The notes beneath the pieces were generated by a model that did not search any database, had not been told where the DNA came from, and worked only from the letters and a program-made list of their open reading frames with translations. A stretch of 43,161 nucleotides of DNA from a virus. Numbering within the stretch: the first letter of the stretch is position 1; the number at the start of each line of letters is the position of its first letter. Location: the UHGV virus genome UHGV-0191544; one strand, 5' to 3'. Positions 4,171-41,175 of the stretch are shown one piece after another. A program made the position numbers and the translations under genes.

Positions 4171-4706
4171 TCAGACTCCTCCTTGATGCCAGCGTCGCTT
4201 GCTGATTCTTCATATGCGCGTTTAGCAGCGTTAAGGATTGCTGCCAGTGGCGTATAGCCGCCATCCATTCGGATTGTGTTGTGGATGCCAGCCATTGTGT
4301 CGCGCAATTTGCTGTGGCTAGCAGACAGTTCTGCAATGCGCTTCTCTGCGGCTTCCAGCTCAACGCGCAGCCTCCCAACCGTAAGCGCAATATCCTCGCT
4401 CTCCTGGTCGCGGCGTTTTATGTATTGCTGGTTTCTTTCCCGTTCATCCAGCAGTGCAAGCACGGTAGCCGGATTGGCTGCAGCGATGAATTCAGCATTG
4501 GCCTGCTGTTCCATTTGGAAATCTTCATCGAAACCGCTTTCAGGATGTGCTCCTTCAATTCTGCAAATGGGAAGATATCCAGCAGCCTCGCGATGAATTA
4601 GTGCATCATCACCATCAAATCGTCCCTCTCCATATTCGAGCGACCACTCACCACACGTTGCTTTTTCTGCCTTGGCACGCAGTGCCTGATAGTCAATCTT
4701 GCTCAT
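4167..4706 (-). CDS. Ead/Ea22-like protein, 179 aa
   Basis: Conserved N-terminal block (CGEWSLEYGEGRFDGDD) plus coiled-coil tail, typical of Ea22-like proteins. Confidence 0.5.
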   Translation of the reverse strand: MSKIDYQALRAKAEKATCGEWSLEYGEGRFDGDDALIHREAAGYLPICRIEGAHPESGFDEDFQMEQQANAEFIAAANPATVLALLDERERNQQYIKRRDQESEDIALTVGRLRVELEAAEKRIAELSASHSKLRDTMAGIHNTIRMDGGYTPLAAILNAAKRAYEESASDAGIKEESE

Positions 4707-9564: not shown

Positions 9565-9964
9565 GTTGACCTCCGATGAAACAACTTTGGAATTTTTTTT
9601 ATTACAAAGTGGTTTCCTTCCCCGCCAATTAGACGGGGATGGAAGAGCATTTATGAGCCTTCATGGACTCTGCTCGATCAGTTCTATTTAATTAATCTCT
9701 CAACTGAATGTAAGTATTCACATAAATCCTCCTACCTCTTGTGCAGCTTTCTTGAATATGGTGGCGGCTGCATAACGCCTATGGAATTGACTTTGGCGAT
9801 TGGATGGCCGGTGCTGAACTCCGGCTTACTGGTTAGAGCGCCCGCACTACCAGTGACGCTGTCTTGAGGCGCAGATTGGTTACTGCTTGCCATGAGCGCT
9901 GTTTATACATTGGTCGAGCATCAGCCTGCTCATTCATCCAATCCCAAAGCCAACTACTCTTTGG

Positions 9965-10007
9965 TTCCCGCATTTCGGCGGGACAATCCCATCAATGTTA
10001 AAGAGCC
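9965..10007 (-). promoter_or_regulatory. nutL: boxA-like GGCTCTTTAA plus boxB hairpin GTCCCGCCGAAATGCGGGA
   Basis: boxB is near-identical to the nutR hairpin; lies just downstream of OL on the leftward transcript; approx coordinates. Confidence 0.55.
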
Positions 10008-10054
10008 TGCCAATCTGTTCCGTTTGGCTTCCAGCGTCCTGCTGATGGCTAAAG

Positions 10055-10139
10055 AATACTGTAGGTATTTTATTGTGTAAATACCCAAGGTATTTATTTT
10101 TGATGAAATAACGATAAGCAAATGAATACAAAGGATATT
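10055..10139. promoter_or_regulatory. OL/PL region with three AATAC-N5-GTATT operator sites
   Basis: Sites at about 10055-10069, 10080-10094, 10125-10139 (third has one mismatch); same motif as OR. Confidence 0.55.
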
Positions 10140-10225
10140 TATTTTTTCGGTGTCTGCTTGTTCAGTGCTTTTTATGCGGGATATGTGAAGTGGATCCCGA
10201 TAGCTATTGCTGCCGGGATTATAGG

Positions 10226-10594
10226 TTAGTCAGCGAAGGTTAAGACGAGAATTACCTTAATGATGTCTGCTACAACAGACACGGCCATAGATAAACCAAA
10301 GACGATCCAAGCCACAGTGATGTCTTCACTACCATCGTATATAGTTCCGTAATCACTGGTGTAAGGCGTAAATGTCGCGCCTTGATACAATAGGTATAAG
10401 CTTGATCCATAGAGGATAAATGCAGATATCCCTTGTATTGCTATGATCACCAGAATCATGAAACGAGCTGATCTATGCGCCCAAGCCTGGCTTATTTTTT
10501 CTGATAGAGATTTCGCAATAAAAGCATGCGCTAAGCCGTAAATTGTCGAGATTGCCAACATCCCAAAAAAGCTTGCTATAGCGGTTCCAACCAT
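10226..10594 (-). CDS. Polytopic membrane protein, about 122 aa, co-transcribed with cI (rex/sieB position)
   Basis: Track ORF 10226..10615 overlaps cI stop; likely ATG at 10594 with AAGGGG SD; 3-4 hydrophobic helices. Confidence 0.6.
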   Translation of the reverse strand: MVGTAIASFFGMLAISTIYGLAHAFIAKSLSEKISQAWAHRSARFMILVIIAIQGISAFILYGSSLYLLYQGATFTPYTSDYGTIYDGSEDITVAWIVFGLSMAVSVVADIIKVILVLTFAD

Positions 10595-10611
10595 AATCGC
10601 CCCTTGCGTGA

Positions 10612-11328
10612 TCAAACCAGCCTTAGTTTTGTCTCAATTGCAACGCCTATAATCTTGCAGTTTCCATTGATTGGCACGAGAGGCCATGCAGGATTAAGTC
10701 CCTTGAGGTATTTATTTCCGCCGTCGATTATCAGCTTCTTGAATGTTGCTTCGTTAGAGTCAGAAAGTTTTGCTATGACCAAGCTGCCGTTGATCGCCTC
10801 CCTTCCGGTATCGAAAAGAACGAATGTTCCCTCTGGAATGCTTAACCCAACCGGTGCCGTCATTGAATCACCTTCCACTTTAAGCCAGAACGCATTACCT
10901 TGAATATGCGCGTCAGACTCAAGCCAAACATCTATGTCTTTAATGGTGTATGGTTCGCATGCTTCACACCACGAGCCAGCCTGGATACTGCTTAACACCG
11001 GATACCTCTTTCCTGCTCTGTATTCCCCTGCATACCTTACGTTGGCATCGCTCTTAAGGCTTTCTGCCTGTTCTGCAACCTTGGCAGCAATTGACTGGCT
11101 AAAATCAGCAATTGAGACTTGCAACAGCCGTGCAAAACCAGATGCAACCTCAACGTTTAGCGCGTTTCTGCCATTAAGATAATGCCCTACCGCTCCTTGG
11201 GTGATACCCAGTTCATCAGCGATTGAGTATTGGGTTATTCCCAATTCTTTCTTTTTTGACTCATACAAAGCCTTAAGCCGCTTAGCGTCTTCGAGCTGTT
11301 CTGTCGTCAGTGATTTTTTATTTTCCAT
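10612..11328 (-). CDS. cI: CI-type prophage repressor (HTH plus LexA-like S24 peptidase domain)
   Basis: Closely resembles lambda CI (LTQEQLEDARRLKAIY..., FWLEVEGNSMTAP...) as recalled. Confidence 0.9.
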   Translation of the reverse strand: MENKKSLTTEQLEDAKRLKALYESKKKELGITQYSIADELGITQGAVGHYLNGRNALNVEVASGFARLLQVSIADFSQSIAAKVAEQAESLKSDANVRYAGEYRAGKRYPVLSSIQAGSWCEACEPYTIKDIDVWLESDAHIQGNAFWLKVEGDSMTAPVGLSIPEGTFVLFDTGREAINGSLVIAKLSDSNEATFKKLIIDGGNKYLKGLNPAWPLVPINGNCKIIGVAIETKLRLV

Positions 11329-11339
11329 AGCTTAATTCT

Positions 11340-11403
11340 AATAGCTAAGGTACTTAAACTAAAAATACCCTGAGTATTGATTGCTTTGAATACCTGTAGT
11401 ATT
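11340..11403. promoter_or_regulatory. OR region with three operator sites between cI and cro (PRM/PR)
   Basis: AATAG-N5-GTACT (11340-54), AATAC-N5-GTATT (11364-78), AATAC-N5-GTATT (11389-403); spacing 24-25 bp. Confidence 0.6.
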
Positions 11404-11428
11404 CTTTGTTCATGGTTAATAACGGAGA

Positions 11429-11629
11429 GTGCATATGATTCGAATGACACTTGCCGATTACGCCAAAATCCATGGACAGGCTAAAGCAGCCAGTGACTTT
11501 GGTGTAATCCAGTGCGCTATCAGCAAGGCCATTCTGGCAGGCCGTAACATTATGGTTACGGTAAAGCCTGATGGCAGTGTGATTGGAGAGGAAGTTCGTC
11601 CTTTCCCAAGCAACAAGAAAAACAAATAG
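11429..11629 (+). CDS. cro: Cro repressor
   Basis: Resembles lambda Cro ([38 protein letters not shown]...) as recalled. Confidence 0.85.
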
Positions 11630-11635
11630 TAACAC

Positions 11636-11680
11636 CGCTCTTTAACAGTCATGGTCCTCATTCCCGCCGAAATGCGGGAA
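11636..11680 (+). promoter_or_regulatory. nutR: boxA CGCTCTTTAA plus boxB hairpin TTCCCGC-CGAAAT-GCGGGAA
   Basis: Consensus boxA followed 15 nt later by a 7-bp stem hairpin, between cro and cII; approx coordinates. Confidence 0.55.
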
Positions 11681-11737
11681 TACAACGCGCATAAGTTGAT
11701 GCGCATAACTTCTTATTTGTTAAGGAAATACTTACAT

Positions 11738-12016
11738 ATGGAACTTACAAGTACTCGCAAGAAAGCGAATGCAATTACAAGCAACATCCTGAATCGAATT
11801 GCTGTACGTGGTCAGCGAAAGGTTGCTGACGCGTTAGGAATTAATGAATCGCAAATTTCGCGATGGAAAGACAGCTTCATCCCCAAAATGGGAATGCTTC
11901 TTGCTGTTCTTGAATGGGGTGTTGAAGACGAGGAGTTGGCGGAACTGGCTAAGAAAGTAGCCAGAATGCTGACAAAAGAAAAAGCCCCGAAGAACGGCGA
12001 ATTCTTCGAGGCCTGA
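11738..12016 (+). CDS. cII: CII transcriptional activator
   Basis: Matches lambda CII core (SQISRWK...IPKxxMLLAVLEWGV); ATG at 11738 with AAGGAAA SD. Confidence 0.85.
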   Translation: MELTSTRKKANAITSNILNRIAVRGQRKVADALGINESQISRWKDSFIPKMGMLLAVLEWGVEDEELAELAKKVARMLTKEKAPKNGEFFEA

Positions 12017-21395: not shown

Positions 21396-21678
21396 CCATT
21401 CCAAAGCCCATCTACGGGTGGGCTTGATAATGAAACCGGAATTTATTCTGGGCAACCAGTTACGGCAGCACCACGAAACAACCCAAGCCAGTAAGTGGGA
21501 AAATAACACTGGCAGCCACTGAAAGATGAACCTCCAGCCTTATGGCAAAAAAGATTCTTTGTGGTGGCGGACTGATGGAAAGACATCGGATAGAATAAAA
21601 CAGTGGCTAGGGTAGCTCCCGAAAAGCGGACTCGTCACCGCCTGCCACTGAATCTATGGCGAACAACTAGACGAGGTT

Positions 21679-41024: not shown

Positions 41025-41039
41025 ATGGTGTCCCCTGCA
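41025..41039. repeat. att core, right copy, forming the 3' end of the tRNA
   Basis: Exact 15-bp match to 794..808. Confidence 0.65.
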
Positions 41040-41099
41040 GGAATCGAACCTGCAATTAGCCCTTAGGAGGGGCTCGTTATATCCATTTAACTAAGAGGA
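41025..41099 (-). tRNA. argW: tRNA-Arg (anticodon CCU)
   Basis: Reverse complement reads GTCCTCTTAGTTAAATGGATATAACGAGCCCCTCCTAAGGGCTAATTGCAGGTTCGATTCCTGCAGGGGACACCA. Confidence 0.9.
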
Positions 41100-41175
41100 C
41101 AATGCGGCATGAGTATACCCGCTAATGGACTGCGGGGTAAGTACGCTGCCGCTCGATTGCTTAAACCCTCGCCAT

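Follow-up and report, generated by a model that had tools for sequence, protein, structure and literature searches.

Lambda RexB has four transmembrane (TM) helices, the class I holins (lambda S105) have three in about 105-120 residues, with the N-terminus out and the C-terminus in, and most of the characterised small prophage inner-membrane proteins (SieA, HK97 gp15, T4 Imm, Sie2009) block genome entry. P22 SieA blocks DNA delivery at the inner membrane (PMC10883804). In lambdoid phages the PRM transcript often carries accessory, often exclusion, genes, such as rexAB in lambda, stk in 933W and hex in 434 (PMC3564112), and genes 44 and 45 of epsilon34 are likewise accessory genes of a PRM transcript (PMC2629481). 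434 hex has been shown to lie on the PRM transcript; its product was first described as a heterologous-exclusion function (PMC3564112) and was later reported to protect repressor from RecA-stimulated cleavage (Shkilnyj et al. 2013, PMC3564112). Here we analyse the corresponding gene, hkaS, in the virus genome UHGV-0191544 (43,161 nucleotides (nt), the whole of which is referred to as the window), a P22-like (Lederbergvirus) mosaic whose closest relatives are IME10, 611R6 and HZ41. Lying between the repressor gene cI and the left operators (OL), hkaS fits the positional class of PRM-operon accessory genes made up of rexAB, hex, stk and epsilon34 44/45, and its product, HkaS, belongs to none of the characterised protein families. 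The gene has been catalogued since 2001; its protein family is new, the genomic niche it occupies familiar. By analogy with the systems above, HkaS may act in superinfection exclusion at the membrane, a general reading to which we give a probability of about 0.4.

The segment from 9900 to 11700 is the immunity module of coliphage HK620, common at 98.7-99.9% identity (megablast) to the relatives mEpX2, HK630, HK140, HZ41, HF4s, 611R6, the Shiga-toxin (Stx)-type podoviruses phi296 and phi367, and two Stx2c phages. The HK620 record (AF335538) labels the open reading frame (ORF) hkaS, 'unknown' (AAK28867; Clark et al. 2001), and the window gene is this same gene, sharing its position between cI and OL, its 122-residue length and its ATG start without substantive difference; the protein is 98-99% identical to HK620 hkaS and to the mEpX2 and HK630 homologues. 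In the database records examined the homologues are annotated as hypothetical or of function unknown. The gene and its immediate surroundings comprise the following features.

10226 to 10594, minus strand: hkaS coding sequence, 122 residues plus TAA stop (ORF listing, homology, PHROG profile, AlphaFold2, hydropathy)
10600 to 10605, minus strand: Shine-Dalgarno sequence AAGGGG of hkaS, 5 nt ahead of the ATG (read from the sequence)
10613 to 10615, minus strand: TTG overlapping the cI stop, rejected as the hkaS start, in frame only in variants with a 17-nt spacer
10612 to 11328, minus strand: cI repressor, 238 residues, HTH_3 and Peptidase_S24 domains (Pfam expectation (E) values 8e-10 and 5e-24; HK620 annotation)

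A sequence-only reading of this locus had proposed an ORF of about 122 residues at 10226-10615 on the cI strand, translationally coupled to cI by a TTG inside the repressor stop codon, and had named an ATG at 10594 behind AAGGGG as the likelier start. The ORF is present, extending over 10226-10615 from the TTG and 10226-10594 from the ATG (10594-10592, minus strand), and the TTG (10615-10613) does overlap the cI TGA (10614-10612), which a gap of 17 nt separates from the ATG. It is the second of the two starts that is conserved. All homologues begin MVG or MIG at this ATG in the alignment, and in the diverged relatives L003, L006 and L009 an AAGGA stands at the position equivalent to the hkaS Shine-Dalgarno sequence. 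The TTG was rejected: in the Salmonella relatives (L003-L005) an in-frame TAA immediately 5' of the ATG blocks it, and it is out of frame both in L009 and in those close copies (15/79) where the cI-hkaS spacer is 18 nt (12 copies) or 19 nt (three) instead of 17 nt (64). Together the in-frame TAA, the varying spacer length and the MVG/MIG starts indicate that hkaS uses its own Shine-Dalgarno sequence and ATG. The ATG behind AAGGGG is thus the conserved start, 17-20 nt 3' of the cI stop, and the proposed coupling through start/stop overlap is not a conserved feature of the gene; re-initiation across the 17-20 nt is possible, not required.

By the pattern of its divergence hkaS is a real gene under purifying selection, because non-synonymous divergence is far below synonymous and both frame and length are kept. 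Its length is exactly 122 codons in all members, down to 52% identity; the E. coli and Salmonella alleles are 61% identical. Between the diverged modules synonymous divergence (pS) is saturated at about 0.8, with non-synonymous divergence (pN) of 0.27-0.33 for hkaS versus 0.07-0.08 for cI, and the L003 and L005 genes differ at a pS of 0.118 with zero non-synonymous changes. Neither stop nor frameshift interrupts hkaS in any of 81 close copies, which together hold 19 synonymous and 20 non-synonymous variable sites in this gene (scaled ratio 0.32), compared with 35 and 6 in cI (ratio 0.05). On these figures the HkaS protein changes about 4-6 times faster than cI. The gene has a GC content of 0.42, against 0.476 for the window. 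A sole broken copy was seen among about 97 examined, that of HF4s (L096, MT833387, 395-399), where a 1-nt deletion in the A6 run of codons 32-33 (GAAAAAA to GAAAAA) breaks the frame; the deletion may reflect an error of sequencing or a genuine loss of the gene at a slippery homopolymer.

HkaS is modelled as a three-TM inner-membrane protein. In Kyte-Doolittle windows three segments are hydrophobic (approximately residues 1-27, 45-70 and 92-121), and a confident AlphaFold2 model computed from an 8-sequence alignment (predicted local distance difference test (pLDDT) 89, predicted template modelling (pTM) score 0.75) has helices at 2-29, 41-74 and 89-121, an additional short helix at 31-38 and, within the second loop, a small β-hairpin. 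Of the three or four membrane helices suggested on first inspection, the membrane character therefore stands and the count settles at three, the fourth finding no place in hydropathy or model. Loop 1 (residues 28-44, 17 residues) is basic, containing K28, K33, R41 and R44, and loop 2 (72-92, 21 residues) is acidic, containing D81, D87, E90 and D91, so that the positive-inside rule would predict an N-out, C-in topology with loop 1 cytoplasmic and loop 2 periplasmic. We considered TM1 as a cleavable signal peptide and rejected this, since its AHA motif lacks conservation and is followed by basic residues, both of which point to a membrane anchor. Conservation is unevenly distributed over the protein. 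Across five lineages, with identities as low as 52%, the invariant positions include Q36, W38, H40 and A43-R44-F45 at the predicted cytoplasmic face, together with Q54, Y67-L-L-Y70, W96, S106, D110, K113 and the C-terminal VLTFAD, the invariant Asp110/Lys113 pair sitting within helix 3. The predicted periplasmic loop is the least conserved part (mean identity 0.44, 2/21 positions invariant).

The family is very small. It forms 12 clusters among 5.8 billion proteins, and 1.84 billion representative proteins, searched exhaustively with a profile, yielded one full-length cluster and one 44-residue fragment, so there are no distant relatives to lend hkaS a function. Representative genomes of 185,579 species yielded one match (Buttiauxella), IMG/VR yielded 115, and 146 of 5,426 complete E. 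coli genomes carry the gene, always on the chromosome. It is seen only in enterobacterial lambdoid prophages and in a single immunity module, which is carried by P22-like (HK620, HZ41, 611R6), lambda-like (mEpX2, HK630) and Stx phages (phi296, Stx2c).

Within this range the gene is linked to one repressor. It lies directly 3' of an HK620-type cI, at the end encoding the S24 C-terminal domain, in 79 of 80 IMG/VR loci, the 80th being cut by a contig end, and has the same position in L003-L010 and L092. The pL and pR operons flanking cI-hkaS are mosaic. This cI and hkaS are carried by exactly the same 16 records of the phage collection, and as P22-like, lambda-like and Stx-type virions are all represented among these, the presence of the gene goes with the immunity type, not with the particle type. 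Close mosaic relatives of other immunity types share the flanks only and are without hkaS (megablast). In Cronobacter phage ENT39118 the ORF after a cI of 65% identity is an unrelated one of 120 residues, showing that the slot is variable and that hkaS is not obligatory for this repressor family; hkaS is an accessory ('moron'-type) gene of the HK620-type immunity module, with which its lower GC content agrees. An uncultured Buttiauxella locus (L092, CBCPKK010000004.1, 2333-3369) encodes a hybrid repressor, in which the N-terminal helix-turn-helix domain, like the adjacent cro, is unrelated to that of the window, the S24 C-terminal domain has 77% nucleotide identity to the window cI from about codon 105, and hkaS follows at 56%; the repressor hinge is here the site of a recombination joint. 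A degraded P22-like prophage of E. coli CT02 (L011, NZ_CP081698, 20087-21189), in which a truncated DnaB-like helicase gene abuts a truncated portal gene and the exonuclease gene and ral are pseudogenised, has hkaS and cI annotated as intact, and its hkaS and adjoining cI 3' end are 100% identical to the window (561 base pairs (bp) compared).

Comparison with the described occupants of this slot reveals likeness in position and divergence in the protein. Like HkaS, lambda RexB is a small polytopic inner-membrane protein encoded on the same strand as cI, between the repressor gene and OL. It has 144 residues versus the 122 residues and three helices of HkaS, and there is no sequence or profile similarity between them (hhalign probability 0.6%). 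No conserved ORF that could be a rexA-like neighbour is present in the 17-nt cI-hkaS gap or the 86-bp hkaS-OL gap, and a consensus scan gives no sign of a lambda pLIT-like internal promoter at hkaS. The failure of the sequence-only reading to match the ORF to RexB or SieB by eye is therefore borne out, with Pfam, NCBIfam and PADLOC also giving no match. Profile searches, which it had suggested, return PHROG 6534, a family of unknown function matched over profile positions 1-122/122 (E 7.6e-79), and no homology to a characterised protein. 434 hex resembles hkaS as a single accessory gene immediately 3' of cI, and differs from it in overlapping the cI stop and in encoding a protein unrelated in sequence (hhalign probability 0.06%) which, as annotated, has a hydrophobic N-terminal stretch and a polar domain of about 115 residues, not three helices. 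The Hex ORF of lambda imm434 (L094, OM418626, 2409-2813) begins with a hydrophobic, signal-peptide-like N-terminus, MIRIAALLSILLTTSANSEC, which suggests an exported protein or lipoprotein and fits awkwardly with the cytoplasmic action that has been reported for it on RecA-mediated cleavage of repressor; the OM418626 record remarks that the paper inferred the wrong Hex start codon. P22 SieA resembles HkaS as a prophage-expressed polytopic inner-membrane protein of P22-like phages. Its gene lies between genes 16 and 9 and it carries the conserved cytoplasmic motif FxRYPxEAxxFNK, neither of which applies to hkaS, and the two proteins share no family in Pfam or PHROG searches.

The earlier placing of a membrane-protein gene in the rexAB slot is upheld by the arrangement itself, with hkaS on the cI strand, between cI and OL, and no promoter-like or terminator-like site in the cI-hkaS interval (consensus scan). 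Near OL the sole leftward promoter-like site in the same scan is pL, which is downstream of hkaS and points away from it. PRM and pRE are thus the only evident promoters predicted for hkaS, and the gene would share its transcript with cI, started at PRM in the lysogen and at pRE while lysogeny is being established, and not at pL or pR. For PRM we infer this from the architecture and from the immunity-transcript terminator, tIMM, which the HK620 annotation places after hkaS. Translated from its own Shine-Dalgarno sequence and ATG, it would supply the lysogen with a three-TM inner-membrane protein with a basic loop in the cytoplasm and an acidic, variable loop in the periplasm.

Such a protein could protect the lysogen from superinfecting phages at the cytoplasmic membrane, and its likely mode would be to hinder the passage of incoming genomes through the inner membrane, like P22 SieA, HK97 gp15 and T4 Imm, rather than to sense cytoplasmic events. 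A superinfection block is favoured because HkaS has almost no soluble domain, no partner gene and no link to virion type, and because there are analogues that block entry. An entry block specifically is less likely than exclusion in general. We regard as rather doubtful the wider proposal that HkaS is the founding member of a sensor-less, single-gene inner-membrane defence family which blocks entry or aborts infection whatever the virion type. Several observations weigh against exclusion. The same slot is occupied in 434 by hex, for which the main role described is a different one, so position alone does not fix the function of HkaS. Physical trapping between cI and OL, which are co-adapted elements, can by itself explain the tight linkage. 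The non-synonymous polymorphisms in hkaS are chiefly conservative hydrophobic swaps within helices, which fit relaxed membrane-protein constraint as well as an arms race. Pfam gives no match to HkaS at E <= 1 beyond two sub-threshold, unrelated families, NCBIfam gives no meaningful match, PADLOC-DB 2.0 gives no defence-model match at E <= 10, and structure searches with the HkaS model retrieve generic helical bundles only, with no meaningful match. In the literature on hkaS, HK620, mEpX2, HK630 and HK140 we found no hkaS expression data or phenotype.

Other functions have to be weighed against exclusion. HkaS could be a lysogenic-conversion factor serving host fitness, through envelope stress, tolerance of ions or small molecules, or modulation of a host membrane protein. 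The predicted placement of the gene for lysogen expression, its presence in 146 of the 5,426 E. coli genomes and the complete identity of hkaS and the adjoining cI 3' end in the degraded CT02 prophage agree with this, as does the intramembrane Asp/Lys pair, which is compatible with proton or ion handling. We nevertheless consider it unlikely, as HkaS has no homology to a transporter or stress protein (Cation_ATPase_C, a Pfam match, is below threshold at 17.7 versus 27.3 bits) and members of the family occur in a single immunity module of prophages only.

Distinctly unlikely is an abortive-infection effector, harmless in the lysogen membrane until superinfection, when it would oligomerise to a pore or channel, the membrane potential would collapse and the cell would be lost, in the manner of RexB or of a prematurely triggered class I holin, yet from a single gene. 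hkaS occupies the rexB slot, a protein of about 120 residues with three TM helices and N-out, C-in topology has the topology of a class I holin, and the invariant polar or charged residues Gln54, Ser106, Asp110 and Lys113 lie within helices. However, no gene for a RexA-like sensor exists, there being no conserved ORF in either gap beside hkaS; HkaS resembles neither RexB (hhalign) nor any Pfam holin family; an obvious cytoplasmic trigger could not be accommodated in its short soluble loops; and it ends in TFAD, without the charged cytoplasmic tail of holins. The class I holins are a topological analogue only, and hkaS, outside the lysis cassette, is placed for lysogen expression.

It is also quite improbable that HkaS modulates lysogen stability or induction, tuning repressor cleavage or the switch and perhaps coupling envelope state to induction, although roles of this kind have been reported for 434 Hex and for lambda RexA/RexB. 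In its favour, hex is in the identical position and is reported to protect repressor from RecA-stimulated cleavage (PMC3564112), cI and hkaS occur 1:1 in the same 16 phage records, and in the Buttiauxella locus hkaS stays with the cI autocleavage domain where the N-terminal domain and cro have been replaced. Adjacency alone, however, predicts linkage to the cI C-terminal domain, ENT39118 has a similar cI without hkaS, HkaS is unrelated to Hex (hhalign probability 0.06%), and only about 17 of its residues would face the cytoplasm. Finally, a barely functional or non-functional ORF hitch-hiking in the space between cI and the OL operators, as its 4-6 times faster protein evolution, its tiny taxonomic range and the HF4s deletion might suggest, is very improbable given a frame and an exact 122 codons kept despite saturated synonymous sites, 81/81 intact close copies, the absence of non-synonymous change between L003 and L005 at a pS of 0.118, the persistence of the invariant motifs ARF, YLLY and D..K.I.VLTFAD, and a conserved Shine-Dalgarno sequence.

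About 2.7% of complete E. coli genomes carry hkaS beside a prophage repressor, and both Shiga-toxin phages and the model phage HK620 are among its carriers. Should HkaS prove to be a membrane exclusion protein that works alone, the known defences of prophages would gain a new and very small family, predictions of host range and for phage therapy would be affected for strains with this immunity type, and, since mEpX2 and HK630 grow on K-12, a tractable model would be at hand. Linked to cI, such a defence would make 'immunity' two-layered, a membrane barrier in addition to repression. If instead HkaS tunes induction, it would have a bearing on the induction of Stx phages.

The operators and transcription signals around cI-hkaS were located by pattern search and from the HK620 record, whose features were transferred by coordinate mapping (window coordinate = L001 coordinate + 7442).

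10055 to 10069, no strand: OL1 operator palindrome, within pL (pattern search and HK620 record)
10080 to 10094, no strand: OL2 operator palindrome (pattern search and HK620 record)
10114 to 10144, minus strand: tIMM, immunity-transcript terminator (HK620 annotation, coordinate transfer; HK620 record features)
10125 to 10139, no strand: third OL operator palindrome, AATACAAAGGATATT (pattern search; conserved in L003-L006)
10194 to 10219, minus strand: RNA hairpin 6 nt after the hkaS stop, no U-tract (minimum free energy -15.3 kcal/mol, z -2.15)
11339 to 11404, no strand: OR3-OR2-OR1 (right operator) region with pR and inferred PRM (mapped HK620 annotation; palindromes at 11364 and 11389)
11435 to 11629, plus strand: cro (HK620 annotation; translation)
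11722 to 11761, minus strand: pRE (HK620 annotation, coordinate transfer), which would be a second promoter for cI-hkaS while lysogeny is being established

The 43-kb window contains five copies of the palindrome AATACN5GTATT, all of them in OL (10055, 10080, 10125) or OR (11364, 11389), versus an expected 1.06, and five was reached in 0/100 shuffles. As the third OL palindrome ends at 10139, the nearest operator is 86 bp from the hkaS stop, close to the 85 bp first estimated. This palindrome starts 45 bp from the start of OL2, the other operators being spaced 24-25 bp; it is kept in L003-L006 (Salmonella and metagenomic relatives), and the L009 site there is weaker and operator-like. The HK620 record places OL3 at the equivalent of 10101-10117, a poor consensus match, and its tIMM overlaps the 10125-10139 palindrome; the order of its annotation is cI, hkaS, tIMM, then OL3-OL1, pL and nutL.

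At the other end of the transcript a TAGAAT ends 6 nt before the cI ATG, which by analogy with lambda suggests a leaderless PRM transcript for cI. In that case hkaS, which has a Shine-Dalgarno sequence to itself, could equal or surpass cI in translation. A stable hairpin follows the hkaS stop in every lineage examined, with a U-tract in none, and those at the matching place in L003 (z -3.8, about 4381-4421), L006 (about 4383-4412) and L009 (z -4.3, 1832-1859) are of unrelated sequence. The hairpin, conserved by position, may be where the immunity transcript has its 3' end, whether as terminator, processing site or stabiliser. Rfam has no match in the hkaS region.

A very hydrophobic 35-residue ORF, MNTKDIYFFGVCLFSAFYAGYVKWIPIAIAAGIIG (10122-10229, plus strand), is convergent with hkaS and overlaps its stop, and its own ATG adjoins the third OL palindrome. 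We considered it as a candidate small toxin and rejected it, its equivalents stopping after 10 codons in L003 and three codons in L006; on this comparison it is probably not a gene. The HF4s record annotates the equivalent ORF as one. Further left, in the nutL region, the Stx2c phages (L095, Stx2_EH1904, 265-514) carry about 250 bp of extra DNA left of OL, with its junction at window position 9963/9964 and hkaS untouched. Elsewhere in the window Rfam identifies a tRNA gene near the right end (41029-41100, minus strand), which may be where the prophage attaches, and also matches the int-alpA small RNA family at 21600-21662 (plus strand; 45.3 bits versus a gathering score of 35.8).

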